Positions 18,817-56,265 of a stretch of DNA of 64,000 nt are shown in pieces. Source of the stretch: Acetobacteraceae bacterium (GTDB lineage: Bacteria > Pseudomonadota > Alphaproteobacteria > Acetobacterales > Acetobacteraceae); NCBI GenBank assembly GCA_049522565.1, contig JBEKNT010000001.1, forward strand, positions 677-64,676. The letters run 5' to 3'. Each line of letters starts with the position of its first letter. Within the stretch, counting starts at the first letter, position 1. A program made the translations under genes and the position numbers. The notes beneath the pieces were generated by a model. It saw only the letters and a program-made list of their open reading frames with translations. It was not told the origin of the DNA and searched no databases.

Positions 18817-18907
18817 TGCGGAACCGGACCGAAAATCCCGGGCCGTTACACTAGTGTTGTGATCCTGACGTTTCGATCCCGGGGGACTGGCCACGAGCGC
18901 CGCAGCC

Positions 18908-20365: not shown

Positions 20366-20392
20366 GCATGGTGAGCATGGCGGCTGCGCGGG

Positions 20393-23643: not shown

Positions 23644-23646
23644 ATG

Positions 23647-25196: not shown

Positions 25197-25207
25197 GAGT
25201 GCCGGGC

Positions 25208-25477: not shown

Positions 25478-25569
25478 GCGGCCCGCAGCGCTGTGCCGGT
25501 ATGCACTATTGAATTCCTTGCGTGAGGTTTGGCCGCCCCCTACCATTGCGGTAACGGAGGGGAGCCACG

Positions 25570-28740: not shown

Positions 28741-29009
28741 GGTTGGCACGGCCGTCGGACGCTGCTGCGGGATGCGTTGCCGTGCTCGGTAGCCCAGGCG
28801 TGTTGCGGCGGCTGCGCCGGGCCGGCGCGTCACGGCGGATTCACGGAATGCTGCCGGGAAGCCTGACGATTGCGCGGAACGCGACGTGATGGTGCACGCA
28901 CCTGGAAGCGCCGGCCGATCGAGGTACGCAAAAACCCCCGCCCGGAGTGGATGAGTCGCGTCCCCCTCTGGGAGCGACACGCCGAACCATAAACGGGGGA
29001 ACCAAGCAC

Positions 29010-29759
29010 ATGAGCCTCGCCGCTGACGCCAAGGGCTTGCCACTGTTCTACCGCCAGGTCCGCATGCTCAACACGCTGCGCGACCAGGACCTGCGCCTGA
29101 TGCCGCCGTCCGATTATGGATTCGCGGCCGGCAGCAATTCCATTCCGCTGGTGGCCGAGGAGTTCTTCGCCGCCCAGGCGCACTATCCCATCGTTTTCGC
29201 CGGCACCGAACACCCATCGCCGGTCGCGATCGTCGGACTGCGCGACAACGAGAACCTGTTCGTCGATGCCGACGGTACCTGGCGCGCCGACAGCTATCTG
29301 CCGCTGTATGTCCGCCGGCATCCCTTCATCTTCATCAAGGGCAATGACGGCACGTTGCACCTTGGTATTGACGCCGCCTCGCCGCGGCTGTCCGCGGATC
29401 GCGGGGAGCGGCTGTTCGATGCCAACCAGCCGACCGCGCTGACCAACGGCCTGCTCAAATTCTGCTCCGCGTTCAGCCGCCAGCACGACATCGCGGCGGC
29501 GCTCGGCGCGGCGTTGCATGCCCATGCGCTGCTGACGGAGTACCGTTTCGACGTCACCGCGGCCGGCCAGGCGCATCGGGTCGGCGGCTGCCGTGTGGTG
29601 GCGGAGGACCGGCTCGCCGCCCTGCCGGATGACGTCTTCCTCGAATGGCGCCGTGCCGGCTGGCTGCCGATGATCACCGCGCATCTGCTCTCGCTGCGGC
29701 AATGGGAAGCGCTCGGCCGGCTGGCCATGGAGCGCCCCGTTGCTTCGCTCGCCGCCTGA
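29010..29759 (+). CDS. SapC family protein (function unknown)
   Basis: I place the start at ATG 29010 (GGGGGA 9 nt upstream). IPLVAEEFFAAQAHYPIVFAG...PVAIVGLRDNENLFVDADGTWRADSYLPLYVRRHPFIF matches my recollection of the SapC-family N-terminal signature. Confidence 0.72.
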   Translation: MSLAADAKGLPLFYRQVRMLNTLRDQDLRLMPPSDYGFAAGSNSIPLVAEEFFAAQAHYPIVFAGTEHPSPVAIVGLRDNENLFVDADGTWRADSYLPLYVRRHPFIFIKGNDGTLHLGIDAASPRLSADRGERLFDANQPTALTNGLLKFCSAFSRQHDIAAALGAALHAHALLTEYRFDVTAAGQAHRVGGCRVVAEDRLAALPDDVFLEWRRAGWLPMITAHLLSLRQWEALGRLAMERPVASLAA

Positions 29760-44800: not shown

Positions 44801-47800
44801 AGCCGAACGGGAGCGGCGTGACCGCGACCGCGGATTCCTCCGGTGGCGGGGCGATCTCGGGGAACGGTGCGACGGCGGGAGCCTACGACAACAGCACGGT
44901 GGCCGCGCGGGTCGGCGAGGGCTCGACCGTGGATGCCGGCGGCACGCTGGCCATTCTGGCCACCGTATCGAACAGCGCGCAGGCGAATACCAACACGCTG
45001 TCGATTGGGGTGGTCGCGATCGGCGGACAGACCGCGACGGCGAATACCGAGGGTCAGGCGACGGCGGCGCTGGGCAACGGCACCACCGTGCGCGCCTTCG
45101 GACTGGAGGTGGAAGGCGCGGCCAACGACGCCTCGGATGCGACCAGCATCGCGGCGGCGGGCGGCATCTTCGGTACTACGGTCGGTGCCGAGGCCGATAC
45201 CGACGCCTCGCCCAAGGTGACGGCGAGCATCGGCTCCAACGCCAATGTCGCTGTGCTGAGCACGGTCGATGTCCTGGCGATCGCCGAGCCGTTCACCAAT
45301 GGCCTGGCGCAGGGCTCCACCGTTTCGGGCTTCTATGCAGGCGGCTCAAGCAACGCCAACAGCTCCGGCACGCCGGACGTGGAGGCCGAGATCGAGCAAG
45401 ACAGCGTCGTCAAGGCCGGCGGGGGCGTGCAGATCCTGGCGGAGGTGCCGACGATCGGCGAGATTTCCAACGGCACGTTCGACGCGTCCAACGGGACGGT
45501 CGTCAGCCTGGCCAACAACGAGTTCTACCTCGTCTCGCCGACGCTGCTGCAAACCGGCGACCAGGTGGTTTACGAGACCGATGGCGGGAAGCCGATCGGC
45601 GGCCTGACCGACGGCCGCACCTACAGCGTGATCAACGACGGCAACGGCATCAGCCTGGGGCAGACCTTCACCGGCGCGCAGGTGAATGCGGCGACCGGCA
45701 CCATCCAGTTCGCCGCGCCGGACGGGTTCATGACCGGCGACAAGGTGGTTTACAGCGCGAACGGCGGCACGCCGATCGGCGGCCTGGTCAGCGGCGAGAC
45801 CTACTATGTGCGGGTCATCAACCCCACCACCATCAAGCTGGCGACCAGCCTGGCGGAGGCGGAACAGGTCGGTGAAAGCTTCAACCCCACGCTGATCACC
45901 GGCGGCAACCTGATCACCCTGGCCAATAACGGCTTCACCAATGGCGAGGCGGTGACCTATCGCAGCACCGGCGCTGGGGTCGCCGGGCTGGTCAACGGCG
46001 ACACCTATTTCGTGCAGCGGGTGAACGCGAACCAGTTCCGGCTGTCGGCGCTGCCCAATGGTCCGGCGCTGTCGATCAGCCCGGGCTTCTTCACCGGTGG
46101 CCAGACGCTGGGCGCCGAGGGTGTGGCGATCGACGGCGCCGGCATCACCTCGCCGCAGAGCCTGACCTTCGACCTCACCTCGCTCGGCACCGGCGTCCAG
46201 CGACTGGCGGGCGTCGGCGGTGCGGCGGCGCTGCTGCCGTTCACGCCGAACGATACCTATGATGCCACCGCCAATGCATCGGGCGGCGCACTGGTCGGCA
46301 ATGTCGGCAGCCAGACGGATACCACGATCAACGGCACGACCACGGCGGTGATCGGCTCGAACACCACGGTGCAGAGCGGCGGCGAACTCACGATCAGCGT
46401 CACGGCGCAACGCCCCAGCACTGCGGTGGCGTCCGGGATTGGCGCCGGGCTTGTGGGCCTAGGCTCCGGCAGCGTGACGACCAACGACACCGAGAACACC
46501 AGCATCACGGTGGGGGACGGCTCCAGCCTCGTTGCCGGCCAGGATGTGATGATCGACGTCGATGGCGGTGTGGACGCCAACGCCTCCTCGCAATCGAATG
46601 GCGGGGGCGCGGTCAAAGTCGCCACCTCGAACACGACGGTCACTGTCGATCCGACGACCGGTATCTTCGTCGGTCAGGGTGCGCGCATCACTGCGGCGTT
46701 CCAGGTGACGCTGGGCGCACAAGGCGAAGTCGGCGGCCTGGACCAGGCAAGTTCCGGCGGTTTCGGTTTCTTCGCCTCCGACTCCGATTCCTACACCACG
46801 GTGACGATCGGTGCGCCAGTCAATGACGGGACCGATCCGGCGGTGCTGAGCGTCCAGATCGGGGACGGCGCCAACCTGTCCGGCGGCAACATCCTGCTGA
46901 TTGCCAGCTACGACGGGCTGAACCCGCAAGTCGACACGTACGCCGACGCCACCGGCGGCACGGTGTACCCGACCGCCATATCCAGCCTGAACATGGCAAC
47001 CAACGCGCTGGTCGATGTCGGCGCCGGCGCCATCCTGAGCGCGGCCAACCAGGTAACCTTGCTGACGAACTATGGCGCCGGCGGAACGTATACCCTGAGC
47101 GCGGTAACCGACCGGACGGCCGTGGTCGGCCACCAGGATGCCGGCGTGGGCGACTTCCAGCAGCTTGCCTCCAACATCGACGTCGAGGATGGCGCCGTCA
47201 TCACGGCGCATAATCTCCAGGCCTCTGCCACGATCGGCGCGTCGGAACCGAACATCGAGGCGCTGGAGGGCGGCTACAACGGTGACGAGCAGCCAGATAA
47301 CATCCAGCAGAGCGCTACGGAAATCCGCAACATCGTGTTCGATGGCGAGGCGGTGCTGACGGCCGGGCCGAGTCCCGTGCTGGTGGTGAACGAGTTCGGC
47401 CAGATCGCCTACGAGTACGGGGTCACGGCGTCGGTCTCGGGCGGCAATATCGTGGTCAACCCGATCACCGACACCAGCCCTGGCGTCGCCACCTTCAGCT
47501 CCGATGAGGGCTCGCAGTGGATGGCCAGCGGGAACGGCGTCGAGGGCATGCAGGAAGGCTCCGTCATCAGCGGCACGGAGGGCAGCATCACCTTCGTGGA
47601 TACCTTCCCGTCGGTGACGCTGGACAACGGCTCGGCGCTGAACATGGTGGTGAACGGCATCGATCCGGTGCTGCGCACGCCGGGTGCCGCGGTCAACGTC
47701 CAGCTCGACGATACCTCGCTGTTCAGTTTCACCCTGGCCAACGTGTTCCGGCCGACCACGATCACCGTCGCCAATACCGCGCCCACGGGCATCGGCAATC

Positions 47801-49029
47801 TGACGCTGACCGGCGATATCGAGGATCCGATCGGTGCGATCAGCCTGAGCGCCGCCGGCGGCAACATCGTGGCGTCGGGCAACGCGGAGCTGGTGCGGGG
47901 CGCGTCGGTTACCCTGGATGCCGGCGGCAACATCGGCACAGCGGCGCAACGGCTGACCGTGGATGTGGTGGACAGTCCGCAGGCCGGGATCACGCTGAAC
48001 GCCAGTGCCGGCGGCGACCTGAACCTCGCGGTGCAAGCGCGGCTGCGCGATCCGTCGGCCTTCATCTTCACGCCGACGCTGGGCGACCTTGTCGCGGGCG
48101 GCAGCATCAACCTCGATCTGTTGCAGCCGGTGCGCGACAACACGGTTGTGGGGCCGGAATACAAGGTCACGGTCTACGACCAGTCGCCGACCTACGGACT
48201 TTTGACGACCACGCACAACGAGAACGCCTGGCCGAACGACGTTGGCGGGCCGCAGCCGCTGCCGCCCGGCGTCTTCGCCACCGGGAGCACGCCGTACGCC
48301 GCGACCTACTCGATCGGCCTGCTGGAAGCGGGTGGCAGCATCAGCGTGATCGACCCGGGCTCGACCCCCATCGGGCTGGCCGCGAAGGTCGAGTTGTTCA
48401 CCGCGGGCGGCAGCATCAGCGCGACGATGAGCGGCGACATCACGCTGACCGAGACCACCGGCAACCTGCGCGTCGGCAAGATCGACTCGACGGGCGGCAG
48501 TGTGACGCTGACCGCGCTGGCCGGCAGCATCGTCGGCCCGGCACCCGGGGGCGCCGGGCAGCCGGCAAGTGTGATCGGCGACAATATCGCACTGACGGCG
48601 GCACAGGGCAGCATCGGCAGCCTGAACGACGCGCTGAATATCCAGTTGCTCGGGGGCAAGCTGGACGCGCTCGCGCGGAACGGCATCAACATCTACGACG
48701 TCTCGGGCGCCTTGCCGATCGACTCAGTCGCGGCCGGCGGCGCGGTACTGATTGGGACTGCGGGGGGGAACATCCTGGTGGCGCCCGGCGCCGCCGGCCC
48801 GGAGGTGGTGGGCCAGACGGTCGCGCTGACCGCCAAGGGTGGCATCGGCATCACGGGGAACCCGCTGGTCGTGCAGTCCGCCGCCCCGAACGGGGTCACG
48901 AGCAACGCAACCGGCCGCACCTACATCGACGAGGTCGAGGGCGTGGTGCTGCACGAGGCCGGGTTGACCTGGACGCTGGGTGACGGCGGCACCAGCGCCG
49001 GCAGAGTGAATTGGGCGAGCCTGCTTTGA
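29821..49029 (+). CDS. Giant (6402 aa) extracellular repeat protein with N-terminal LEPR-XLL-type motif; LktA-like filamentous-adhesin-type Ala/Gly/Thr/Val repeats
   Basis: Single uninterrupted 19,209-nt ORF. N-terminus is MAFPFLMAALRAHGERRQRRLAANRRQAEGRLVFEALEPRVLLSAD, with LEPRVLLSAD at 29929-29958. Recurring units of about 45-50 aa, e.g. AAGAAGGTVGIGGSVSVSIIANTVDATIANATVTAAGNVGIIADDQDTIDAYGG. Codon usage and GC3 are consistent with neighbouring genes. Confidence 0.93.
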   Translation: MAFPFLMAALRAHGERRQRRLAANRRQAEGRLVFEALEPRVLLSADALTVALSGDAAHPMAHDVVVEAVSQALPNIESATVQMVQVVDLAANDQVLASAPLGSVSGIKITSGTGDTSLTVATASFGTANVPAITFAGGNGNNTLAVTGSKTTDWNITGNDAGTVTGSAAITFTGVANLSGGAENTNVFTVTQDGALTGTLSGTPDGSAGGNDSLVFKSDTVTNAAFTAAGPHSGTIDMDGSVFTYAGLTPIIFSGNASNITITGTANTDDLTLADTNVAGQLEVASLNNSLESVTFARPSVSLTVDFGTGSNDSLQIGTVQLAGASLTVAGGNGTDSISVDANAYVSTRDTTGNALTAPSVGNSGDLSLSAETITVNTGAKLYANANSGFTSGDVTLDAGSQGGAGQTAAASIAVHGAQIVGGDVDLDSAAGATATITQQTLATLSLDATAQTAIDGASGILATVGDVQIDANVDVTGQVTANAAPLGSLNADAALALSDVTADGAATVSGTTVLGAAGAVDVHSGNTTSVTTLADGSTGGATAVGGAIALADVSTGSTAQLGTGVKVAATTVAVEADSADVVGTTANATAGGATANGAAAQAALAGATTPDGSVTVAAALAATTLKDTNTATSDATTVTTTGGFDVIADTSRLVDTGAIAIGVQGGPGVGAAVALNAISVSSSATLGDTSTIYGNADVDVGTLRTGDIFGAVALSGAGSTDVGVAGALAVNAVSDDAFAGIAAAAQVSLPTGSLTVGVGQDGDAITDALAFLNGASPDPGVGASVAIAPVHFSAEAGVQAGAQLSVGTASSATESDASFSVDAQRTITTVADGGVADGTATAAALALTVAQDGASAELDAGAVVTVQGNLTLTATQTSDVHTSGSAEAGATATVAAFGIVLDNTDATTAATVVAQDAVSLTATGQTASTTLATAGPVGAQDGGPNAAALIAAELGFIGNPPGVTLPTPATADGAFGVAAAMALGVAIGRVSATVLPETASKEAISAQQISLEAAGEVTATTRADASPIDLTSGRVDVGAALALQTGQAIIVAEVDSPISAPDIALLAEAAPGTGITPNTVAGLFTVQAIAGAGESDVGVAGAMAIAGDGITVQALLDSAATSTSSGVVVLAAVGDSTSNVDATALSAADGVGAGASFSLNVSDATVTAEIEDGGSVTGTPGLLLGANGGQNATTTAEGGTDAGTATGAAFALAVVTDEITAGLTTRATAAAGTAILRATGDTTATTTTTGAADGQYAAIGASLALGILVDDVSADVAGRLIATGPVTMTATGTNTQTTTADAGSLGAEDGSLSAGALLANQLALLNDPNGIIVPALTTGAGTVGVAAALSFGVDDATVETDISGRVLTEGDLTMTATGGTTAKSEASGATVDPSLDGTGVAAAVAVMVATPKVSARIDGDALAADATLTANMATPTGHDIESNAESGAGDPNTGVAGSFALTVAAPVTEAVIGGSGILETLPGGNVTLSATGASQIAADARAEILGPGRSGLGASVALDIALDDTHAMLDQGAQVLDANNLTLTAKGTYGSAAHAEAGDQSGGAAGAIAINVAPQDTEAEANPGPSLTLTGTLMLQAEQNQGSIADANGGSSDRGGGFGAALAVNAPVASTTALLDRGANVANAINVIADSTASAEAEATAGIKGGSDDGTADGLSAQWLGVAGTDGSTTPPTIPSISAALANGAQQLGLTLPEVDAAAALSVDAAFGTTSASIAGGDPIIAGGNVLVLATGGSTADSQADASAITTADAGAVGFGFAVDFDDQALDASIGAGTPVSAQSITVQATVPREQAQQASAEAMSGAGASDGIAGALALSLVDNSTEAQILSTAPITAPGFIVVEATGDTSSAATAGEDVNGTVAGTGISLAGNLMVDHTAANVIAGADLNSLGQIRIEADGTQSLQSESAGTATAGLGAVPASLTADVLLATTAASVGDGAKIDTGITGGTATQNLLVLADDSTSLNATAGSLGAGALAGAGAAAQFSDLLKQTTADMDGTVQVAGSVEVEAQSKEAGFTAADAGAMAAGVSVAGGAGVQMGDLLTHAAIDGDAHVRAVGDVVVTALDTTQMDVFAGAVNAAVAASAGAGIGAIGLMKTTEALIENNAVVDAEGEGAGTQVANGFTISFVPGSSIPGEVAKPFLPSALTDIFGILLNNPLHNLISPVGSIPSDDFSSQDRVATPTFTTVHGVAVTALSHDDLALQATGLGASDVAGLELSASGVVDNATTRAEIGAGALVDQSGLPSSTSQSVLVFADGDTQAMVIAGTDSISGLLAVGPAAALLAIDPDTIAFIGAGAKVSAIDDLTVQAVGTDDLLTDATDVVASDLSVAGSVDALVLGGETYAYVDANATVIAGGSVSIVANETSQSENVAGALSDGTSGPVAVGASAGISLVATDTEAWIASDAHVTALGLETDQVPGIETDPTSATDFTVIEGVSVLATTNDLVMDLVANGSAGGFAAFIGSGAGVVIGNTTAAYIGTGAVVHAGAFGLNGLPLANATPATVSVGAVDNTHSFDGIASVVDGDLAISGAADAGVMRDATSATIDAGATIKASGDVDVAAWSTEVVDSFVGGLGLTSGGIELNVSASVYSIGAVAGSDLLDPLSVVGGPGSLESYLDGLLQGMVAQAGQGIVGILNQYAAGVGGQQAAATQLAALTPNDPVTGALTASNLGKIGTLANIDDAKVTAYGNVGVTAVDAVTPDLDTSFTFSYSFGSNDQNLNLSLDGGLLAGRANATASITGGSDVTATDNVAVQSQASTTQTVNSTYAFNSSSDNSSALVDDSRLTAGGDVTVNAQMNGYNKYSGILPGINGLKIRTSYNNEQNTTIASVTGHSVIDADGTVTVNAFSTSEDHTIADGATLLDQGFEGSFTLGVALAWNQIGDTTSATITDSNALAASVAVTATADTEDFTVALGIGDGDNNSVSLGGSGAENLMNDIVSASIEGATVLAPGGVSVLSTDDESLTAITGAAVARTNYGISAAVSLNTSEDVVSAEIGDSTVTTDSGGIQVVAVGTGNMSSLAAGVAQGKNLAGGVGAPVDTLGMLILADVTKGSVLTTGAGVTVTATGNGTIMTLAGGVAIALNQVGVGAAVSINNASDSVTAQIVGSQVTAGGAVDVEALSDPTIEALAFGFAYAPTIAVGGSVAYSYIDDTTTAEVDNSGKTGSKIYAGDGAITVMATDAPYIEVLTGAIAASSGEVAVAASVSINNVNDTVTVGVNDATLTAPVGPIIVQGVASPNILSIAVGGSGDETFAGVGAVADDNVGSTMTVTVGTATAVLTAPVVTVDGADNSNIGSAAYGVAGSGTVSIAGAVATNTITGGMVVSLDSDGVIDAQVADVEATNAATIEVMTGAADGAGTASGGAATSVNAITDDATSQVVGGKINAADTSVTASQTGTIEALATIGSGAGTADLVASVTTNNIYDAATATISSGAVINTGSGGSLTLSSTNGGDIESLSGAINGAGAAAINGAVANNNISLLTSTPGGANTTLENSTVTGGSANVDATDSATILSVAISGGGASTAAVGGSVTKANGNITATVAVTNNKETLTGALDIAASDSGDITTAAGNAEGAGTFAGGAAIAINTLNNNVTATLTGGNANVGSLSVTATANGSLGAVGAIGGGAGTVALDVSDTENTITGSLAAAITGGAVVTANGAVTVGATDQSQIESLSGAADGAGTVGGGAARAHNRIGAVASDPIASDPGDADPDEPSDATPSQAATTATIDDGSFVEGESVAVTAAFTGSIETAAIAGSGAGTAAIAGALTDNLIGDQVTSSISGANTTVFAAGVGQGQITVSATDGATIKSLAGSATGAGVVAVGVSAAVNKLRNAADASIDAANVWSLSGSVAVIASENGLIESISVAGSGGGDVALDAAVSLNDIADDIGATVDDSALVRAAQDITLHASDGGTIESSADGLAISGGFSGAGAVATNEIGDQITAGVTDATLRAIDDSVFILTDDSAGIENFSFAAGAGSIGLTATVSVNEIDNVLMAEIDASTVTAGNDVALDSTDNSSIGSIASQFSFGVLVGAGGAAAYNQIENSVGATIDDGSVVTASSGDVLVEAQEQATIQTLAAGAAGGTVGIGGSVSVSIIANTVDATIANATVTAAGNVGIIADDQDTIDAYGGELAGGFVGAAGSVAVVTLESQITASVENATVAARGITPALIMPDIDQTTGAAVNGSAGGVVVAARDLENAKVIAVTGAGGLGAIAGTVSDVHTATVTDAHITGSQINSASKPGSGVTVHASQATIVTTTLGAIAGGFVAVGGAVQVTTIDNRTQAYIADQVTGRETPGTATAVYANTINVSTATYENVSPTTVGVTVGAVAISGSVAYTNIASSSDAFVRDALLQAKNGAASITVAAEDNASIGTFAGDVSAGFVGAGAAVAVSEIGDTTLATLEGARLDANGAITVSASSTGNITDVAAGAAGGAVGIAGAVLVDSISTETEAATESYGGAATLINQDPGFAGTPGRDGGSLQSVTIEATGNETLDGTAGAAAIGLGAAGAGIQVGSIADLVAANVEGGTVITAAGNVSVTAKDQRNASSDAIAVAGGLLALSGAFSIITIGGAFDPSSVAQVNAGDTGSGPTNDQQLVSNANSSIDEEPAASGISTNQQTTAEGPSATVAQNAVGKLNQPAPTVGDNLFATPTNVSGTFATVDSTGSGGAPRITAGGNIAISASDGFSLNVSDGSGGGGLVSLGLSVGLATVTDTTTASATGGAVLAAGGDITVDANDASSSLSGVGVTTGSVGAIAVGGAVGDATLNLDVTAELGPDVTVTRAAGVDINTTQTANLAANGFDIAGGLAALGDVTTSTTIGGTVVAEVGQGSDLGSAATPIGTLTIAASGSDIGTASTTAGSGGVVAGESNSADATVNPDFSAVLDSDTTSDVAGSVAIVVQTSGVATTSAEGVTIGAGAIGLSDAEATLAIGDSARIGDDAMLTAGGNVTISAEHTTTADPLGQPNGSGVTATADSSGGGAISGNGATAGAYDNSTVAARVGEGSTVDAGGTLAILATVSNSAQANTNTLSIGVVAIGGQTATANTEGQATAALGNGTTVRAFGLEVEGAANDASDATSIAAAGGIFGTTVGAEADTDASPKVTASIGSNANVAVLSTVDVLAIAEPFTNGLAQGSTVSGFYAGGSSNANSSGTPDVEAEIEQDSVVKAGGGVQILAEVPTIGEISNGTFDASNGTVVSLANNEFYLVSPTLLQTGDQVVYETDGGKPIGGLTDGRTYSVINDGNGISLGQTFTGAQVNAATGTIQFAAPDGFMTGDKVVYSANGGTPIGGLVSGETYYVRVINPTTIKLATSLAEAEQVGESFNPTLITGGNLITLANNGFTNGEAVTYRSTGAGVAGLVNGDTYFVQRVNANQFRLSALPNGPALSISPGFFTGGQTLGAEGVAIDGAGITSPQSLTFDLTSLGTGVQRLAGVGGAAALLPFTPNDTYDATANASGGALVGNVGSQTDTTINGTTTAVIGSNTTVQSGGELTISVTAQRPSTAVASGIGAGLVGLGSGSVTTNDTENTSITVGDGSSLVAGQDVMIDVDGGVDANASSQSNGGGAVKVATSNTTVTVDPTTGIFVGQGARITAAFQVTLGAQGEVGGLDQASSGGFGFFASDSDSYTTVTIGAPVNDGTDPAVLSVQIGDGANLSGGNILLIASYDGLNPQVDTYADATGGTVYPTAISSLNMATNALVDVGAGAILSAANQVTLLTNYGAGGTYTLSAVTDRTAVVGHQDAGVGDFQQLASNIDVEDGAVITAHNLQASATIGASEPNIEALEGGYNGDEQPDNIQQSATEIRNIVFDGEAVLTAGPSPVLVVNEFGQIAYEYGVTASVSGGNIVVNPITDTSPGVATFSSDEGSQWMASGNGVEGMQEGSVISGTEGSITFVDTFPSVTLDNGSALNMVVNGIDPVLRTPGAAVNVQLDDTSLFSFTLANVFRPTTITVANTAPTGIGNLTLTGDIEDPIGAISLSAAGGNIVASGNAELVRGASVTLDAGGNIGTAAQRLTVDVVDSPQAGITLNASAGGDLNLAVQARLRDPSAFIFTPTLGDLVAGGSINLDLLQPVRDNTVVGPEYKVTVYDQSPTYGLLTTTHNENAWPNDVGGPQPLPPGVFATGSTPYAATYSIGLLEAGGSISVIDPGSTPIGLAAKVELFTAGGSISATMSGDITLTETTGNLRVGKIDSTGGSVTLTALAGSIVGPAPGGAGQPASVIGDNIALTAAQGSIGSLNDALNIQLLGGKLDALARNGINIYDVSGALPIDSVAAGGAVLIGTAGGNILVAPGAAGPEVVGQTVALTAKGGIGITGNPLVVQSAAPNGVTSNATGRTYIDEVEGVVLHEAGLTWTLGDGGTSAGRVNWASLL

Positions 49030-49133: not shown

Positions 49134-51002
49134 ATGCTGGAACCGGCGCTGTGGCGTCAGCTTGCGGACGCGGCCGAGCCGGCGGCGCGGGCCGCGTCCT
49201 GGGCGGCACTGGTAACCAGGCTGATCCCGGGAGCGTATCAGGCGACGGTGGTCCTGGCCGGACCCGAGGGCTTTGCCCCCATCGCGCTCTGGCCGGCGGG
49301 CCAGCCGCCGGGGAACCTGCTGATGGCGGCGGTCGAGGCGGCGCTGGAACAGCGTGCGGGTGCCGTGCGCCTGGGACGCGCCGCCGGCGCAGGGCGGGAC
49401 GCGGCGGCCGGGGAGGGTGCGGCGCGCAACGGCGGAGACCGGGAGGGCGCAGTCGCCCTGCCCCTGCTCGCCGGCACCGCGTTGCTGGGTGCCGCGGCGG
49501 TAGCCCTCACCGGCACCGATGACGCCCGGATCCGTGCCGCCATGCGGCACCTGCAATGGGGCGCCGGCTGGCTGCGCGGCAGCGCCGGCGCGACGGACAA
49601 CGATGCGAGCCCGGGTCCGGAGTCGCACCAGGTCCTCGGCCCGCACCAGATCCTGGAATTGCTCGCCGCGGTGGTCGAGGAGACCAGCTTCCGTGCCGCG
49701 GCCCAGCGCGTGGTGACCGAGACCGCGATCCGCTTCGGTTGCGACCGGGTCAGCCTTGGGCTGTTGCGCGGCACCACGATGAAGGTCGATGCCATCTCGC
49801 ACAGCGCTGTGGTGGAAGCCCGCAGCGGCACCACGCGCTTGCTGGCGGACGCCATGGCCGAGGCGGTGGACCAGCGGGCACTGCTGCGCTTTCCGCCCAC
49901 CACCGAGGACGCGCTCGAGCCGTTGGCGCGGCACGCCCAGGAGCAGCTCGCCGCCCCGAGCGGCGCGGCCATTCTGACCATCCCGCTGTTGCAGCAGGAC
50001 CGGGCGATCGGCGCGCTGCTGTTGGAACGGCCGGGCGCGCATCCTCTGGCGGCGGTGGACATCGCGCGGCTGGATGCGCTGGCCGCCTTGGTCGGGCCGG
50101 TGCTGGCGGAGAAGTGGCGCGACGACCGCTGGGTGGCGACCAAGGTCGGCGAGAGCCTGGCGCGCCAGACCCGGCTGCTGTTGGGTCCGACCCACGTCGC
50201 ACGCAAGCTCACGATGCTTGCGATGGTGCTGTTCGCCGTGCTCGCCGGCACCTGGCACGGCGAATACCACATCATCGCCGAGGCCCGCCTGGAGGGCACC
50301 GTCCGCCGCAGCATCGTGTCCGGCCTCGATGGCTTCCTGCGGGAGGCGCCGGTGCGCGCCGGCGACCGGGTGCATGCCGGCGACCTGCTGGCAGCGCTCG
50401 ACGACCGGGACCTGACGCTGGAACGGTTGCGCTGGACGACCGAGCGTCAGCAACGGCAGTTCGAACTGGAACGCGCCATCGGCGACCGCCGGCGCGCCGA
50501 GACCAACATCCTCCAGGCGCAGCTCGCCCAAGCGAACGCCCAGGTCGAGCTGGCGGATGCCCAGCTCGCCCGTACCCGGTTCGTGGCCCCGTTCGATGCG
50601 CTGGTGGTGGCCGGCGACCACAGCCAGTCGATCGGCGGCGCGGTCCGCCGGGGCGACGTGTTGTTCGAACTGGCCCCGCTGGAGGACTGGCGTGTCCTGC
50701 TGGAGGTCGAGGAGTCGCAGGTCGCGGATGTGCGGCCGGGCCAGCACGGCAGGCTGGTGATCGCCGCGATGCCGTATCAGGGCCTGGACTTCACCGTCAC
50801 CCGCGTCACGCCGGTCGCCGAGGTCAACGACGGCCGTTCCGTGTTCCGGGTGGAGGCGGCGCTGGCCGAGGCATCGCCCCGGCTGCGGCCGGGCATGCAG
50901 GGCGTTGGGCGGATCGAGGCCGGGCAGCGGCTGGTGTCCTGGATCTGGACCCGCCGCATCGCGGAACAGGTGCGGCTGCTGTTCTGGCAGGTGTTCCCGT
51001 GA
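49134..51002 (+). CDS. Tandem GAF-like domains + TM segment + HlyD-type membrane-fusion (periplasmic adaptor) protein
   Basis: I place the start at ATG 49134; track start 49011 overlaps the giant gene and the repeat. GAF-like region: VVTETAIRFGCDRVSLGLLRG...ILTIPLLQQDRAIGALLLERPG...LDALAALVGPVLAEK. TM segment: LTMLAMVLFAVLAGTW. HlyD-like region: VRAGDRVHAGDLLAALDD, coiled coil, RFVAPFDALVV, GRSVFRVEAAL. Confidence 0.8.
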   Translation: MLEPALWRQLADAAEPAARAASWAALVTRLIPGAYQATVVLAGPEGFAPIALWPAGQPPGNLLMAAVEAALEQRAGAVRLGRAAGAGRDAAAGEGAARNGGDREGAVALPLLAGTALLGAAAVALTGTDDARIRAAMRHLQWGAGWLRGSAGATDNDASPGPESHQVLGPHQILELLAAVVEETSFRAAAQRVVTETAIRFGCDRVSLGLLRGTTMKVDAISHSAVVEARSGTTRLLADAMAEAVDQRALLRFPPTTEDALEPLARHAQEQLAAPSGAAILTIPLLQQDRAIGALLLERPGAHPLAAVDIARLDALAALVGPVLAEKWRDDRWVATKVGESLARQTRLLLGPTHVARKLTMLAMVLFAVLAGTWHGEYHIIAEARLEGTVRRSIVSGLDGFLREAPVRAGDRVHAGDLLAALDDRDLTLERLRWTTERQQRQFELERAIGDRRRAETNILQAQLAQANAQVELADAQLARTRFVAPFDALVVAGDHSQSIGGAVRRGDVLFELAPLEDWRVLLEVEESQVADVRPGQHGRLVIAAMPYQGLDFTVTRVTPVAEVNDGRSVFRVEAALAEASPRLRPGMQGVGRIEAGQRLVSWIWTRRIAEQVRLLFWQVFP

Positions 51003-51015
51003 CGGTAGGGAAGAT

Positions 51016-51078
51016 TTCTCCCCCTCCCCCCAACCTTGATCCGCTTCGCGGCTCAAGCCCACAAGGGGAGGGGGAGAA
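51016..51078. repeat. Intergenic palindromic repeat, family C
   Basis: Perfect 14-nt terminal inverted arms TTCTCCCCCTCCCC (51016-51029) and GGGGAGGGGGAGAA (51065-51078). Core CTTGATCCGCTTCGCGGCTCAAGCCC. Confidence 0.75.
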
Positions 51079-51114
51079 GACTTGCCTTTCTGCCCCGATG
51101 CCGGGCTCCCTCTG

Positions 51115-53346
51115 ATGTCAGCATCGTTGTTCAGCCCCGACTGGTATCGCGTTGCCGATCTTCGCCCACGGCTGCGGCCGCGCGCGGCGCTGCACCGGCG
51201 CGAAATGCGCGGCCGGCTATGGCATCTCGCGCAGGATCACCAGAGCGGCCGGTTCTACCGGCTGTCGCCCGCGGCGTATCTGATGGTCTGCCTGCTGGAC
51301 GGCCGGCGGACGCTGCGGGAGGCGTGGGAGATGGTCGGCCGCCGGCATGGCGCCGCCCAGCCGAGCCAGGAGGAAACCATCCTGTTGCTGGCCCAGCTCC
51401 ACCGCGCCGACCTCCTGCTGGGTGAGCTGCCGCCCGATATCGCCGAGATCGCGCGGCGCGGCGAGCGGATGCAGCGCCACGCCTTGCTGATGCGGCTGCG
51501 CAACCCGCTCGCCTTGCGGCTGCCGCTGTTCAACCCGGACCGCTTCCTGGACCACACCATGAAGCTGGTGCGCCCGATCTTCTCGCTCCCGGGCTTGCTG
51601 CTCTGGCTGGCGCTGGTCGGCACCGGCATCGTGCTGGCTGTGGTGCACCGCGCGGAGCTCACCGCGGATGTGCTGGACCGTGCCCTGACGCTGCACGGCA
51701 TCACCCTGGTGCTGCTGGCCTATCCGCTGGTGAAGGCGGCGCACGAATTCGGCCATGCCTATGCCTGCAAGCGCTGGGGTGGCGCGGTGCACGAGATGGG
51801 CGTGATGTTGCTGGTGCTGTTTCCGGTGCCGTACGTCGATGCCAGCTCGGCCACGGCGTTCCCCCGCATCTGGCAACGCGCCCTGGTCGGCGCCGCCGGC
51901 ATCATGGTGGAGCTGGCACTGGCCGCGGTCGCGATGATGGTGTGGGTCGAGGCCAGCACAGGCGCGGTGCGCGCCACGGCCTTCAACGTCATGCTGATCG
52001 GCGGTGTCTCCACCCTGTTGTTCAACGGCAATCCGCTGCTGCGGTTCGACGGCTACTACGTGCTGTGCGATTTGATCGGCCTGCCGAACCTGGCGCAACG
52101 CGGCAGCCGCTACATGCTCTACCTGGTGCAGCGCTACGGCTTCGGTCAGGCGACGCTGCACAGTCCGGCCGAGACCGCGGGCGAGAAACGCTGGCTGGTC
52201 GGCTACACGCTGGCCTCCGTCTCCTACCGCATCGTGCTGACCCTGGGCATCGCCTTGCTGCTGGCCTCCCGGTTCCTGCTGGTGGGTGCATTGCTCGGCT
52301 GCTGGAGCGTGGGCTCGCTGGTGGTCTGGCCGGTGTTGAAGGGCGTGCTGCATGTCGCGCGTGCGCCCCGGCTGGCGGGGCGGCGGCCGCGAGCGCTGCT
52401 GGTCGCGGGGTTGCTGGCCGGGGTGCCGGCGCTGCTACTGTTCGGCCTGCCGGTCCCGTACGGCACGCTCGCGCAGGGCGTGGTGCAGGTGCCGGAAGGC
52501 GCGATGCTGCGGGCCCCCACCGAAGGCGTGGTGCGGCGGGTTCTCGCGACTCCCGGAAGCCGGCTGCACCAGGGCGATCCCATTCTGGAGCTGGAGGAAC
52601 CGGCCCTGCCTGCTGCGTTGGCGGTGGTGGAAGCGCAGCGCGATGAGCTGCGGCTGCGGCTGGACGCCGTGCTGCTGACCGACCGGGTCTCGGCCGAACT
52701 GCTGCGCGAGCAGGTGCGGCGCGCCGAGGCGACGGTCGCGCTCGGCCGCGCAAGGCTGGCGGAGCTGATCGTCCGCGCCCCACGCGATGGCGTGCTGGTG
52801 CTGCCGGAGGCGAGCGATCTGCCGGGCCGCTTGCTGCATCGCGGCGACGTGCTGGGCGACGTGCTGGAAGCCGGCGACGTCAGCATCCGCGTCGTGGTGC
52901 CGCAGGACCGGATCGACCTGGTGCGTGGCCGCACCAAGGGGGTGGAGGTGCGGCCGGCCTATGCGGTGTTCCGGCCGATGGCAGCGACGATTTCGCGCGA
53001 ATTGCCGGGTGCGGTACGGGAGATGCCCAGCGCGGTGCTCGGGCTTGCCGCCGGCGGCGAGATCGCCACCGACCCCACCGATGCATCCGGTCGCCGCGCG
53101 TTCGAGCAAACCTTCCTGGTCGATGTGGTGCCGGTCGGGGCGGCGGCGAGCATGGCGCTGGCCGGTGTGACGGACCATGCCGCATCGCCCGGCGGCATGG
53201 ACAGCACAACGCCCCCTGGCGTGGCGGATAGTGGCGTCTGGATCGGCGGGCGTGCCTATGTCCGCTTCGACCATGGGGAGGAACCGTTGGGATGGCGCCT
53301 GCTGCGCGGGCTGCGCCAATTGTTCCTGCATCGCCTCGATGTTTGA
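51115..53346 (+). CDS. Fusion protein: PqqD-like N-terminal region + polytopic M50 (site-2 protease) metalloprotease + C-terminal HlyD-type adaptor domain
   Basis: I place the start at ATG 51115 (MSASLFSPDWYRVADLRPRLR); the track uses TTG 51082. HEFGH at 51742-51756 and FNGNPLLRFDGYY are S2P/M50 signatures, with multiple hydrophobic TM stretches. N-terminal FYRLSPAAYLMVCLLDGRRTLREAW...LLLAQLHRADLL is PqqD-like. C-terminal LRAPTEGVVRRVLATPGSRLHQGDPILELE, a coiled coil and IVRAPRDGVLVL are HlyD-like. Confidence 0.8.
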   Translation: MSASLFSPDWYRVADLRPRLRPRAALHRREMRGRLWHLAQDHQSGRFYRLSPAAYLMVCLLDGRRTLREAWEMVGRRHGAAQPSQEETILLLAQLHRADLLLGELPPDIAEIARRGERMQRHALLMRLRNPLALRLPLFNPDRFLDHTMKLVRPIFSLPGLLLWLALVGTGIVLAVVHRAELTADVLDRALTLHGITLVLLAYPLVKAAHEFGHAYACKRWGGAVHEMGVMLLVLFPVPYVDASSATAFPRIWQRALVGAAGIMVELALAAVAMMVWVEASTGAVRATAFNVMLIGGVSTLLFNGNPLLRFDGYYVLCDLIGLPNLAQRGSRYMLYLVQRYGFGQATLHSPAETAGEKRWLVGYTLASVSYRIVLTLGIALLLASRFLLVGALLGCWSVGSLVVWPVLKGVLHVARAPRLAGRRPRALLVAGLLAGVPALLLFGLPVPYGTLAQGVVQVPEGAMLRAPTEGVVRRVLATPGSRLHQGDPILELEEPALPAALAVVEAQRDELRLRLDAVLLTDRVSAELLREQVRRAEATVALGRARLAELIVRAPRDGVLVLPEASDLPGRLLHRGDVLGDVLEAGDVSIRVVVPQDRIDLVRGRTKGVEVRPAYAVFRPMAATISRELPGAVREMPSAVLGLAAGGEIATDPTDASGRRAFEQTFLVDVVPVGAAASMALAGVTDHAASPGGMDSTTPPGVADSGVWIGGRAYVRFDHGEEPLGWRLLRGLRQLFLHRLDV

Positions 53347-55378
53347 CGCGGCCCCGCCATCCCGGGCGCTGCCCGCGCTCTGGCGCTACCCGGAGCGTGC
53401 CGACGCCGAACGCGCACCGCTCGACCGGTGGCTGCACCAACACGTGGGTGGCGCGATGCTGCGTTGTACCGGTGGATTGCGGCGGCGGCGCCTGGCCGGC
53501 TTCGCGCGCGCGGTGACCGTGACCGGGGCGGCGTCGGCCGCACTGGATGACGCGGCGCTGGCCGCGGCGGCGCGGGAGGCCGGCATCGCGCTGCGCCGCC
53601 GCGCCACGGATCGTGCCGCCCTGGTCTGGCTGTTCGCCCTGGTGCGGGAGGCCGCTTCCCGCAGCCTCGGCTTCCGGCCGTACGAGACCCAGGTGATGGG
53701 CGCCGCGGCGCTGTGGCGCGGCGCGGTGGCGGAGATGGCGACCGGCGAGGGCAAGACCGCCGCGGCCGGGCTGTGCGCGGCGGCGGCGGCGCTGGCCGGC
53801 CGTGCGGTCCACGTCATCACGGTGAACGATTACCTGGCCGGGCGTGATGCCGCGACCATGGCACCGCTGTTCCAGCGCCTGGGCCTGTCGGTGGCCGCGG
53901 TGACGGGGGGGATGTCGGCGGACGCCCGCCGCGCGGCCTATGCCGCCGCCATCTGCTACGGCACCAGCAAGGAGATCGTCTTCGACCATCTGCGCGACCG
54001 GCTGGCGCTGGGGCCGGAGCGTGGCGCGCTGCGGCTGCGGCTGGCCGGCTTTGCCGGGGCGCCGCCGAAGCTGCTGCTGCGCGGCCTGGACTTCGCGATC
54101 GTGGACGAGGCGGACAGCGTGCTGGTCGATGCGGCTCGCACGCCGCTGATCCTGTCCGGCGAACAGGAGTCGCAGGTCGATGAGGAGACCGCTGCCTTGG
54201 CGTTGGCGCTGGCCGACCGGCTGGAGGCCGGCCGCGACTGGCAGCGCCTGCCGGGTATGCTCAGCGCCCACCTGACCGAGGCGGGCGAGATCCGGCTGGC
54301 CGCGCTGGTCGAGGCCGAACCGGGATACGCCGGGTCCGGGCTCCGGGCATCCGGCCCTTGGGCATCCGGTCCTTGGGCGATACCGCGGCTGCGCGAGGAG
54401 CTGGTGCGCCACGCGCTGGCCGCCCGGCACCTGTTTCGCGCCGGCGAGCACTATCTGGTCCGCGACGCCCGCACCGTGATCATCGATGAATTCAGCGGCC
54501 GCCTGATGCCCGACCGGCAATGGGCGGACGGGCTGCACCAGATGATCGAGGCGAAGGAAGGTTGCGCGCTGACCCGTCGGCGGGTCACGCTGGCGCGGCT
54601 GACCTATCAGCGCTTCTTTCCGCGCTATCGGCACCTGTCCGGCATGACGGGAACCGCTGCCGAAGTCGCCGGCGAGCTTTGGGCGGTCTACGGGTTACCG
54701 GTTGCCCGGATTCCGACCCATCGGCCATCGCGCCGCGTGCGGGTGCCGGACCGCCTGCTGGCGGACGCCACCGCCAAGTGGGCTTCCGTCGCTGCCCATG
54801 CCGCCGCGTTGCGGGCAGCCGGCCGTCCCGTCCTGATCGGCACCCGCACGGTGGCGGCGGCGCAGCGGGCGAGCCTCGCGCTGACGGCGGCGGGACTGCC
54901 CCATGCGGTACTGAGCGCCGCGCAGGACGCTGCCGAGGCGGCCACCATCGCCGAGGCCGGCACGGTCGGCCGGATTACGGTTGCCACCAACATGGCCGGG
55001 CGCGGCACCGACATCAGGCTCGCACCCGAGGTCGCCGCTGCCGGCGGGTTGGCGGTCTTGCTCACCGAACGCCACGAGGCTGGGCGCATCGACCGCCAGC
55101 TTGCCGGCCGCGCGGCCCGCCAGGGCGACCCCGGGAGCGTGGCCGCGATCCTGGCGCTGGATGACCCGCTGCTGGAGGCGGCAGGGCTGCTGCCGCGCCT
55201 GCTGGCGCGCTGCGGCGGGTGGTTGCGCGGCTTCCGGGTGGGGGCGCGATTGGCTGGCTGGGCGTTACGCCGGGCGCAGAAGAGCCAGGAACGCGCCCAT
55301 GCGGCAGCCCGCCAGGCATTGCTGCGGCAGGACCGGATGCGCGCCGAGCGGTTAGGTTTCGCGGGAGTAGGGGAATGA
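53339..55378 (+). CDS. SecA-like ATPase paralogue (NBD1-PPXD-NBD2 motor), truncated soon after NBD2
   Basis: I place the start at ATG 53339, which overlaps the upstream stop (ATGTTTGA). RPYETQVMGAAAL..AEMATGEGKTAAAGL, VHVITVNDYLAGRDA, ICYGTSKEIVFDHLRD, FAIVDEADSVLVDAARTPLILSG, HYLVRDARTVIIDEFSGRLMPDRQWADGLHQMIEAKEG, LSGMTGTA, TNMAGRGTDIRL and TERHEAGRIDRQLAGRAARQGDPG align motif-by-motif with canonical SecA. Confidence 0.85.
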   Translation: MFDAAPPSRALPALWRYPERADAERAPLDRWLHQHVGGAMLRCTGGLRRRRLAGFARAVTVTGAASAALDDAALAAAAREAGIALRRRATDRAALVWLFALVREAASRSLGFRPYETQVMGAAALWRGAVAEMATGEGKTAAAGLCAAAAALAGRAVHVITVNDYLAGRDAATMAPLFQRLGLSVAAVTGGMSADARRAAYAAAICYGTSKEIVFDHLRDRLALGPERGALRLRLAGFAGAPPKLLLRGLDFAIVDEADSVLVDAARTPLILSGEQESQVDEETAALALALADRLEAGRDWQRLPGMLSAHLTEAGEIRLAALVEAEPGYAGSGLRASGPWASGPWAIPRLREELVRHALAARHLFRAGEHYLVRDARTVIIDEFSGRLMPDRQWADGLHQMIEAKEGCALTRRRVTLARLTYQRFFPRYRHLSGMTGTAAEVAGELWAVYGLPVARIPTHRPSRRVRVPDRLLADATAKWASVAAHAAALRAAGRPVLIGTRTVAAAQRASLALTAAGLPHAVLSAAQDAAEAATIAEAGTVGRITVATNMAGRGTDIRLAPEVAAAGGLAVLLTERHEAGRIDRQLAGRAARQGDPGSVAAILALDDPLLEAAGLLPRLLARCGGWLRGFRVGARLAGWALRRAQKSQERAHAAARQALLRQDRMRAERLGFAGVGE

Positions 55379-56265
55379 GACGTCTGTTGTTGCCGGGCTC
55401 GCGGATCGCCGGCGTCGCTCGTGCCCGTCTGGTGCCACGCTGCGCCCGCCTTGTGGGCGCCATCCTCGTGTGCACCATGCTGGGGTCCGGCATCCGGGTC
55501 CCGGCTGCCCTGGCGGAGGGGAGTGACTTCGACTGCGTGATGGATCCGTCGCTTCGGGTGAATGTCGGCAGCGCGATCCCCGGCCTGCTGGAAGCGGTAC
55601 TGGTCCAGCGCGGCGACCGGGTGCATGCCGGCCAGGTCGTCGCCCGGCTGGTTTCGGACGTCGAGGCAGCGCAGGTCGCGCTCGACCGGCTGCGCGCTGC
55701 CAGCACGGCGGAGATCGAGGCGCGCGAGGCGCAGTTGACCCTGTCGCGCCGCCAGTTGGAGCGAACTCAGGAGCTGTACCAGCATCAGGTGGCGACCGCG
55801 GAGCGGCTGGACGAACTGCGTGCCCAAACCGAGATCAACGACCGCGAATTGCGGCTGGCACGCCAGGCGCAGGAAGTGACCCGGCTGGAGTTGCAGCGCT
55901 CCGAAGCCACATTGCGGCAGCGGGAAATTCGCAGCCCGATCGATGGGCTGGTGACCGAACGGCTGATGACCGGCGGCGAATATGTTCACCAGGAAGCGGT
56001 GATCCTGCGGCTGGCGCGGTTGGACCCGCTGTATGTGGAGACCTTCCTGCCGGTGCGACTCTACCCGCTGCTGCATATCGGCCTGGACGCGGTGATCGAG
56101 CCGGCGGCACCGATCGGCGGCAGGATCCCGGCCCGGGTTGCCGAGGTGGACCAGGTGTTCGACGCCGCCAGCGGCAGTTTCGGCGTCCGGCTGGAATTGT
56201 CGAACGCGGACGGGCGGCTGCCGGCGGGCCATCGCTGCAAGGTCAGCTTTCAGTTGGACGAATAG
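55375..56265 (+). CDS. HlyD/RND-type periplasmic adaptor (membrane-fusion) protein
   Basis: I place the start at ATG 55375, which overlaps the SecA-like stop (ATGA). N-terminal signal/anchor LVGAILVCTMLGSGIRVPAALA. VQRGDRVHAGQVVARL, coiled coil, IRSPIDGLVTE, GSFGVRLELSN. Confidence 0.82.
   Translation: MRRLLLPGSRIAGVARARLVPRCARLVGAILVCTMLGSGIRVPAALAEGSDFDCVMDPSLRVNVGSAIPGLLEAVLVQRGDRVHAGQVVARLVSDVEAAQVALDRLRAASTAEIEAREAQLTLSRRQLERTQELYQHQVATAERLDELRAQTEINDRELRLARQAQEVTRLELQRSEATLRQREIRSPIDGLVTERLMTGGEYVHQEAVILRLARLDPLYVETFLPVRLYPLLHIGLDAVIEPAAPIGGRIPARVAEVDQVFDAASGSFGVRLELSNADGRLPAGHRCKVSFQLDE

Follow-up and report, generated by a model that had tools for sequence, protein, structure and literature searches.

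What can a SecA protein do when the regions by which SecA is coupled to the SecYEG channel are missing? The question is raised by a gene in a 64,000 nucleotide stretch of DNA from an Acetobacteraceae bacterium (GenBank assembly GCA_049522565.1, contig JBEKNT010000001.1, positions 677 to 64,676 of the forward strand), which is called the window here. An earlier note on this DNA had recognized a SecA paralogue in the open reading frame (ORF) 53339-55378, and had proposed that the protein, which keeps the ATPase motor and the preprotein-binding domain but ends shortly after NBD2, docks on a co-translated M50 fusion protein. The larger picture had escaped that note: the M50 partner, which has a predicted PqqD-like domain, is one of three membrane-fusion proteins (adaptors) encoded together with the short SecA (sSecA), and the cassette formed by these genes lies beside genes of giant proteins with an LEPR-XLL motif. 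We put at roughly 60% the probability that sSecA is a dedicated motor, physically tied to the adaptor platform and to the LEPR-XLL giants, and serving export or maturation.

The sSecA gene and the segments encoding its domains are the following:

53339..55378, + strand: short SecA (sSecA), 679 aa, complete gene including the stop codon
53339..53542, + strand: residues 1-68, family-specific N-terminal region with YPER at 17-20 (family alignment, AlphaFold2)
53543..54145, + strand: residues 69-269, NBD1 with the Walker A motif AEMATGEGKT, the DEAD box and a 16-aa insertion at about 228-245
54146..54667, + strand: residues 270-443, full-size PPXD (PF01043, alignment to the B. subtilis PPXD, AlphaFold2)
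54668..55234, + strand: residues 444-632, end of NBD1 and NBD2, including MTGTA (P-loop_SecA, invariant columns)
55235..55378, + strand: residues 633-679, scaffold helix 633-674, then the LxFxGxxE end (E. coli alignment, AlphaFold2)

Every SecA motif quoted in the earlier note was present in the 679 aa translation. The Pfam scan matched SecA_DEAD to residues 50-448 (1e-89), SecA_PP_bind (PF01043) to residues 352-404 and P-loop_SecA from residue 465 onward. The PF01043 match (1.6e-16) covers the second half of the domain, and residues of about 270-443 align to the PPXD of B. subtilis SecA (221-377). In a phmmer search of PDB sequences residues 69-667 of sSecA aligned to residues 36-602 of B. 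subtilis SecA (1e-109), and BLASTP aligned residues 99-665 to residues 68-649 of E. coli SecA with 38% identity. The AlphaFold2 model, which was built from 64 homologues, had a predicted local distance difference test score (pLDDT) of 89.4 and a predicted template modelling score (pTM) of 0.88; residues 1-25 were of low confidence and the chain was helical from residue 27. SecA structures were the only strong PDB matches of the model (Foldseek), and the best superpositions were those on SecY-bound SecA: 6itc (TMq 0.77) and 3din (0.76). The Pfam matches, the PDB alignments, the model and the invariant ATPase residues agree that the motor and the preprotein-binding domain are kept.

The protein ends at the scaffold helix. 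It retains NBD1, a full-size PPXD, NBD2 and nearly the whole first long scaffold helix, and it lacks the wing domain, the intramolecular regulator of ATPase 1 (IRA1)/two-helix finger, the C-terminal linker and the zinc-binding tail. SecA_SW (PF07516, scaffold/wing) was not matched in the Pfam scan. The alignments to B. subtilis and E. coli SecA place the end of sSecA at about E. coli residue 663, and the alignment to SecA structures and models, which the earlier note had recommended, maps the C-domain beyond this point as missing. In the AlphaFold2 model the chain terminates in a single 42-residue helix (633-674), corresponding to about residues 621-663 of E. coli SecA. The short end after the last motif, described in the earlier note, was confirmed, except that about 80 residues rather than 70 follow GDPG and form this helix. 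At the other end, the N-terminal extension of about 105 aa had been misjudged: E. coli SecA has 81 aa before RHFDVQ, the equivalent of RPYETQ, so that the extension beyond E. coli SecA amounts to about 31 aa. A longer ORF from the ATG at 53177 (733 aa) was ruled out by the homologues and by the conserved gene overlap; the start at 53339 is favoured because its 8-nt overlap with the preceding gene matches 55 related loci.

Walker A, the DEAD box and motifs III, V and VI are unchanged across 64 members of the sSecA family, the invariant residues being GEGKT 136-140, DEAD 256-259, GT 438-439, RG.D 555-558 and R583...R594. The Walker motifs, whose degeneracy the earlier note had named as a ground for refutation, are intact. 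Three features are peculiar to the family: the 16-aa insertion in NBD1, the partly conserved N-terminal YPER and the conserved C-terminal LxFxGxxE. The sSecA of the window has in addition a tandem SGPWA SGPWA (residues 338-347, 54350-54379), located in a PPXD loop that is missing in most family members; AlphaFold2 confidence at this loop was low (about 56).

Housekeeping SecA (901 aa in E. coli, 841 aa in B. subtilis) has the NBD1/NBD2 motor, the PPXD and the first scaffold helix in common with sSecA, and the identity is 36-38% over about 570-600 residues. The two differ in the N-terminus, the 16-aa NBD1 insertion, the LxFxGxxE end and the C-domain, which sSecA lacks; moreover, sSecA is encoded with adaptor and M50 genes, whereas the gene of housekeeping SecA is a stand-alone essential gene. 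A protein of almost identical domain content is SecA-N68 (PDB 5k9t), an engineered C-terminal truncation of E. coli SecA and a Foldseek match of sSecA. The ATPase of SecA-N68 is reported to be deregulated and elevated, owing to the missing IRA1. Unlike this laboratory fragment, sSecA represents a natural family, in which the scaffold helix is kept and the termini are conserved ones of its own.

The NCBIfam models of SecA and SecA2 align to sSecA only up to about position 550 of 800, with 342-497 bits against cut-offs of 725-1493. Scores were below the cut-offs of the housekeeping SecA equivalogs (TIGR00963, 496.7 vs 814 bits; PRK12904, 473.5 vs 800 bits) and of all four SecA2 models (TIGR03714, 409.6 vs 930; TIGR04221, 398.8 vs 725; TIGR04397, 432 vs 1085; NF012136, 341.9 vs 1100). 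Because it falls below these hidden Markov model cut-offs, lacks the defining C-domain and branches in a clade of its own, sSecA is outside the SecA and SecA2 equivalog families.

The clade was found in a neighbour-joining tree of 19 short SecAs and six full-length proteins (E. coli, Sphingomonas, Variovorax, Alkaliphilus, Gordonia SecA2 and the L. crispatus aSec SecA2), calculated from 565 ungapped columns with 200 bootstraps. The short SecAs were monophyletic with respect to the full-length SecA and SecA2 proteins in 200/200 bootstraps. A distinct clade with conserved neighbours, for which the earlier note had suggested looking, thus exists. Its members in the tree represent at least eight classes or phyla, among them Alpha-, Beta- and Gammaproteobacteria, Desulfobacterota, Omnitrophota, Acidobacteriota and Nitrospirota, and since the topology within the clade disregards taxonomy, it points to horizontal transfer.

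A protein search with sSecA returned proteins of 623-690 aa with 48-99% identity from Acetobacteraceae, Methylobacterium, Bradyrhizobium, Ideonella, Methylomirabilis, Syntrophaceae and Planctomycetota. The top 150 representatives of clusters at 50% identity were almost all 594-692 aa long; the family comprises more than 150 such clusters, and the median length over 269 members is 663 aa. A tblastn search of plasmids located the family on plasmids and chromids of Alphaproteobacteria in culture, namely Methylosinus, Mesorhizobium, Rhizobium, Sinorhizobium/Ensifer, Pseudosulfitobacter, Pontibrevibacter and Alisedimentitalea. The presence of the cassette on plasmids of cultured bacteria suggests that sSecA is an accessory protein rather than the only SecA of its carriers. 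On the RefSeq plasmids (L090-L096) the names given to sSecA by the Prokaryotic Genome Annotation Pipeline (PGAP) vary: 'prepilin peptidase', 'DEAD/DEAH box helicase', 'preprotein translocase subunit SecA' and 'hypothetical protein'.

Two unusual relatives were considered and set aside. P0122 (L085 3656-7378, 1240 aa, with SecA_SW) has an N-terminal half like that of the short SecAs and is canonical SecA with SecA_SW from one motif on. It could be taken for an evolutionary intermediate, but the sequence switches exactly at this motif and no small adaptor gene comes next, which makes a chimera of metagenome assembly or a recombinant more probable. P0375 (676 aa, PqqD and SecA_DEAD) has the appearance of a Rosetta-stone fusion; it is actually a deletion that joined the M50-adaptor and sSecA genes, with a frameshifted tail.

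In the window sSecA is encoded by the third of four tightly packed genes. The other three code for the adaptors:

49134..51002, + strand: GAF-adaptor, consisting of a cytoplasmic GAF domain, one transmembrane (TM) segment and a periplasmic membrane-fusion domain (622 aa)
51115..53346, + strand: M50-adaptor, consisting of a PqqD-like domain, an M50/site-2 protease (S2P)-like protease and a periplasmic membrane-fusion domain of HlyD/MexA type (743 aa)
55375..56265, + strand: small adaptor, a membrane-fusion protein of RND_mfp type (296 aa)

The order is GAF-adaptor, M50-adaptor, sSecA, small adaptor, and the same order was found in three distant genomes. The ATG of sSecA overlaps the stop of the M50-adaptor gene by 8 nt (ATGTTTGA), and the ATG of the small adaptor overlaps the sSecA stop by 4 nt (ATGA). 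The start of the GAF-adaptor gene was refined from TTG 49011 to ATG 49134. Domain matches of the adaptors in the cassette were HlyD_3, HlyD_D23 and RND_mfp, and phmmer matches were MacA, EmrA and LipC.

When GTDB species genomes were scanned with the alignment of the M50-adaptor, at least 458 species proved to encode a relative. Synteny was surveyed in 87 loci. sSecA accompanies the M50-adaptor in 75 of the 76 loci with room for it and follows it directly in 69; the 8-nt overlap recurs in 55. Loci in which the two are separated have SapC or modification genes in between. The GAF-adaptor is encoded directly upstream of the M50-adaptor in about 75 of 79 loci, and the small adaptor comes immediately afterwards in 49 of 72. 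None of the 87 cassettes contains or adjoins an exporter of the ATP-binding cassette (ABC) type (ORF with Walker A and LSGGQ); the nearest ABC ORF is more than 3 kb away and importer-sized. Neither secY nor secE was present in any locus whose gene table was examined, and the window ORFs scanned included no TolC, ABC exporter or secY. A TolC gene directly follows the cassette on the Methylosinus plasmid pMSC49a, and TolC-like ORFs flank the cassettes of L040, L043 and L066. As far as comparative genomics can, this survey supports the choice of the co-translated M50 fusion as the candidate partner of sSecA; docking on the M50-adaptor would be a probable feature of the system, and independence from SecYEG a possible one.

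The genes of the GAF-adaptor and the M50-adaptor are separated by a 112-nt spacer (51003-51114), which contains a perfect G/C-rich inverted repeat of 14-15 bp (TTCTCCCCCTCCCC ... GGGGAGGGGGAGAA). As RNA the spacer has a folding energy of -57.6 kcal/mol (z = -4.2); it is not followed by a T-run, and the arms are unique within the window. The repeat may serve as an intra-operon stabiliser or attenuator.

The M50-adaptor carries the zinc-site motifs of S2P: HExxH at 210-214 and NPLLRFDG at 306-313. Residues H210, E211, H214, N306, P307 and D312 are invariant in 58 M50-adaptor sequences and lie in predicted helices. Residues 29-421 are homologous (8e-46) to the intramembrane proteases NF041824 of daptide-type ribosomally synthesized and post-translationally modified peptides (RiPPs), with scores that stay below the curated cut-offs (Pfam, 25.6 vs 27.2; NF041824, 156.9 vs 300; NF058609, 28.5 vs 225). 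The N-terminal domain of about 100 residues gave a weak Pfam match to PqqD (E = 0.004), and PF05402 is precomputed in many M50-adaptor homologues. A profile of 26 sequences of this domain, compared with 177,635 PDB sequences, found only the PqqD proteins 3g2b and 5sxy, at weak E-values of 0.08-0.11. In the AlphaFold2 model of the M50-adaptor (pLDDT 81) three strands and three helices in the PqqD topology are followed by about seven TM helices and then by a periplasmic domain, for which MexA, AcrA and MacA were the best matches in the PDB (Foldseek). From these weak scores and the model the N-terminal domain is predicted to be a PqqD-like leader-recognition domain. Public records do not name the M50-adaptors consistently; the names used are 'putative peptide zinc metalloprotease', 'PqqD family peptide modification chaperone', 'peptidase M50', 'HlyD family...'.

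Directly before the cassette the window encodes a giant protein, the presumed cargo:

29821..49029, + strand: giant repetitive protein, 6402 aa, ending 105 nt before the cassette
29914..29976, + strand: LEPR-XLL motif of the giant, residues 32-52 (...LVFEALEPRVLLSAD), matching NCBIfam NF012209

The giant matched NF012209 with 32.3 bits (cut-off 17) and neither had a Pfam domain nor matched RTX in Pfam. Its N-terminus, which begins MAFPF and precedes the LEPR-XLL motif, is basic and non-hydrophobic. A search with the N-terminal 330 aa found only seven close, partial relatives. A giant ORF on the + strand lies upstream of the cassette in 37 of the 65 loci with enough upstream sequence, ending at a median of about 200 nt before it; in further loci a giant ORF lies a few kb upstream or downstream. 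Called or annotated sizes of the cassette-linked giants elsewhere are 8,148-14,100 aa.

The LEPR-XLL motif was present in all eight giant N-termini that could be read: those of the window, L043, L055 and five plasmids. It has the form h-F/x-E-x-L-E-P-R-x-L-L-S/N-A-D and sits 25-75 residues from the start, after a basic non-hydrophobic stretch; four of the eight begin M/V-[AS]-F-P-F, and a classical hydrophobic signal peptide was absent from all eight. Two of the plasmid giants are named 'LEPR-XLL domain-containing protein' by PGAP. In the Alisedimentitalea giant (L093 1226-1378) the PGAP start is 51 codons too far downstream and conceals the motif. The reverse association, from LEPR-XLL to the cassette, was assessed through plasmid records only. 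In many cassette-adjacent giants the last 5-20 residues are preceded by a loose motif, [VI][DNS]W or acidic-W (...GRVNWASLL* in the window, 48990-49029; also seen in the giants of L003, L006, L020, L033, L053, L060, L069 and L074), which might be a recognition or anchoring signal. According to a 2026 preprint, two LEPRxLL giants of Chlorobium chlorochromatii reach the partner cell and have sapC and tolC as neighbours; the order reported there, sapC and then the giant, is that of the window, and the interspecies-transferred symbiosis proteins of 'Chlorochromatium' are said by the authors to be without known transport signals (bioRxiv 10.64898/2026.03.19.712371).

How might these parts work together? 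We propose, at somewhat less than even odds, that they form a SecYEG-independent, envelope-spanning secretion system of didermic bacteria, in which a SecA-derived motor replaces the energiser of ABC, resistance-nodulation-division (RND) or major facilitator superfamily (MFS) type. The S2P-like protease-adaptor and the two other adaptors would reach TolC, and the LEPR-XLL motif of the 6,000-14,000 aa proteins would be a leader, read by the PqqD-like domain and cut by the M50 domain. sSecA would act with the motor and polypeptide clamp that it retains (NBD1, NBD2, PPXD and scaffold helix); with finger/IRA1, wing and tail, both the coupling to SecYEG and the restraint on the ATPase have presumably been lost. 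Its docking site would be the cytoplasmic side of the platform formed by the M50-adaptor and the GAF-adaptor, where the PqqD-like domain would bind the basic LEPR-XLL leader. The motor would then thread the unfolded giant across the inner membrane into a conduit of the three adaptors and a TolC-type channel, and the M50 protease would cut or release the leader during or after export. SapC, DUF3467 and the TolC-type outer-membrane channel would be supplied by genes nearby or elsewhere.

Of these accessory genes, one is found in the window, directly upstream of the giant gene:

28947..29759, + strand: SapC family protein (Pfam SapC, 5e-61)

SapC is encoded in 23 loci, in varying positions: between the M50-adaptor and sSecA, after sSecA, or before the giant (for example L087 12061-12858, L053 12340-13113 and L095 18860-19681). 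It has no PDB relative by sequence. DUF3467 (about 100 aa) is encoded upstream in 52 of 78 loci, usually directly before the GAF-adaptor (L001 5603-5890, for example). A tblastn search did not find it in the window, where there is no room for it between the giant gene and the GAF-adaptor gene. DUF3467 may assist the cargo as a chaperone or adaptor; a role as a SecB-like chaperone is unsupported, because its profile found no relative among PDB sequences.

About 20 loci contain a module of genes for a radical-SAM protein, an O-methyltransferase, a flavoprotein resembling Trp-halogenases and three unknown proteins of about 210, 264 and 285 aa (L001 21-5306, L002 109-5218, L089 4310-10004). In L089 the module is embedded between the small adaptor and sSecA, directly before sSecA in the operon. 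Its composition suggests that the cargo, or some other substrate, is modified in a RiPP-like manner. Upstream of sapC the window contains a different set of genes (19181-28544): mannosyltransferase-like, Anp1/GT2-like, a GT1 glycosyltransferase, a tetratricopeptide repeat (TPR) protein and a 2-oxoglutarate (2OG)-Fe(II) oxygenase. Their products may glycosylate or hydroxylate the giant; none of these genes recurs in the other loci examined. In L087, a 5-Mb genome whose cassette has a 9,289-aa giant upstream, the cassette is followed by a complete cluster for an extracellular contractile injection system (13129-22004; Pvc16_N, sheath, tube, VgrG-like, PAAR, gp25).

Several observations weigh against the reading of sSecA as a dedicated export motor, including its SecYEG-independent version. 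The cassette encodes no obvious protein-conducting channel, and to our knowledge S2P-type domains and adaptor anchors do not conduct polypeptides. TolC is adjacent in only four of about 90 loci, and none was found in the window. In about 20 loci (Methylobacterium, Methylorubrum and some Mesorhizobium) no giant was found within 8-10 kb and the radical-SAM/methyltransferase/halogenase module is present instead, so that the cargo of these loci could differ. The PqqD assignment of the M50-adaptor has weak scores (E 0.004-0.1). Since many giants share the C-terminal acidic/W motif, transport could start from the N-terminus or, as in type I secretion systems (T1SS), from the C-terminus. sSecA might use SecYEG after all, because its AlphaFold2 model most resembles SecY-bound SecA. 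Finally, it is from genomics that we infer both the function of sSecA and its contact with the platform.

The use of SecYEG deserves separate consideration. sSecA could be an accessory motor resembling SecA2, which works through the housekeeping SecYEG; the adaptors and TolC would then act second, by a periplasmic pick-up of MacAB type, with the M50 protein serving as leader or signal peptidase. SecA2 of Mycobacterium, Corynebacterium, Clostridioides and the streptococcal/lactobacillar aSec systems is, like sSecA, a second, substrate-dedicated paralogue. Mycobacterial SecA2 still depends on SecYEG. The wing of this protein is shortened and its tail absent, which provides a precedent for SecYEG use with a reduced C-domain, and a reduced wing and a missing C-terminal tail are features of some SecA2s (PMC7503281). 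The scaffold helix that contacts SecY is kept in sSecA along with the motor and the PPXD clamp, and the best superpositions, those on 6itc and 3din, point in the same direction. However, the two-helix finger and the wing, which insert into or contact SecY, are wholly missing from sSecA, whereas the known SecA2s all keep the finger (PMC7503281). SecA2s retain the scaffold bundle as well and use SecYEG or SecY2, and the sSecA family differs from them also in its occurrence in didermic phyla, its coupling to adaptors and its position in the tree, apart from the Gordonia and Lactobacillus SecA2s. The LEPR-XLL N-termini, moreover, offer no hydrophobic core to open the SecY lateral gate, and the conserved translational coupling of sSecA is to the M50-adaptor, with secY and secE absent from the loci examined. 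On balance we consider it unlikely that sSecA works through SecYEG in this way.

The cassette might alternatively be a RiPP-like maturation machine, in which sSecA acts as an ATP-driven unfoldase or holdase feeding a leader-bearing substrate, either the N-terminus of the giant or a small peptide, to the M50 protease and, in loci that have them, to radical-SAM, methyltransferase and halogenase enzymes, while export takes another route. The resemblance of the PqqD-like and M50 domains to the daptide and YydH leader peptidases (NF041824, 8e-46) is what such a machine would predict, as are the modification module of about 20 loci, lying inside the operon in L089, and the lack of an adjacent giant gene in some of the module-bearing loci. 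Homology with the RiPP M50 leader peptidases (MpaP-type of daptides, NF041824; YydH/LiaK, NF058609) extends over the N-terminal region and the HExxH domain; the M50-adaptor differs from them by its fused periplasmic adaptor domain, by its association with a SecA-like ATPase rather than an ABC transporter, and by a presumed substrate of thousands of residues. On the other side, only a conduit spanning the envelope would account for three periplasmic adaptor domains, joined in some loci by TolC, modification enzymes are missing from most loci, and SecA-type clamps are known only from polypeptide translocation. These points leave a maturation machine with little probability.

That sSecA is a truncated, decaying or mis-assembled secA without a function of its own, as its length (shorter than that of any characterised SecA) and the damaged or chimeric relatives P0122 and P0375 might suggest, is refuted by family-wide conservation: uniform length of about 660 aa, invariant catalytic residues, monophyly, synteny across phyla and on finished plasmids, and a high-confidence AlphaFold2 model.

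As an export machine driven by sSecA, the cassette would resemble the T1SS of giant adhesins and S-layer proteins (HlyBD-TolC, LapBCE, SiiCDF and SapCDEF of Campylobacter fetus) in having membrane-fusion proteins, sometimes a TolC gene, and a giant repetitive cargo that is encoded nearby and lacks a Sec signal peptide. The C. fetus sap operon contains SapC, as do some of the cassette loci. In many T1SS the TolC gene lies elsewhere in the genome, which may hold for the cassette as well. In contrast to T1SS, the cassette has no ABC transporter; in place of a single adaptor it has three that differ from one another, of which two carry fused cytoplasmic domains (GAF in one, PqqD-like plus M50 in the other), and its presumed cargo has the conserved N-terminal LEPR-XLL motif.

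The nearest precedent for sSecA itself was described by West-Roberts et al. (bioRxiv 10.1101/2023.11.21.568195): giant Omnitrophota and Actinobacteriota proteins contain SecA_DEAD and PPXD modules without scaffold and wing, and the authors likewise propose that these modules help to export the giant to which they belong; HlyD, M50 and GAF are not mentioned there. Those modules lie within the giant polypeptide, near TM segments and type II/IV-like secretion genes, whereas sSecA is a stand-alone protein of about 660 aa encoded in an adaptor/M50 cassette. No energiser of M50 or SecA-like type is mentioned in a review of tripartite systems from 2021. Full-text literature searches, which did not cover most subscription journals, found no description of the cassette, and it may represent a new kind of secretion system.

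The LEPR-XLL giants are among the largest bacterial proteins, and for their export route the cassette offers a concrete candidate machine. If the proposal is true, sSecA would represent a new class of energiser for tripartite secretion systems, and a SecA motor would be able to work without the domains that couple it to SecY. Functions would also be assigned to families that PGAP calls 'prepilin peptidase', 'DEAD/DEAH box helicase', 'PqqD family protein' or 'hypothetical protein'. At least 458 species have the partner gene of the cassette, and it is carried by plasmids of Methylosinus, Mesorhizobium and Roseobacter-group strains that are in culture.

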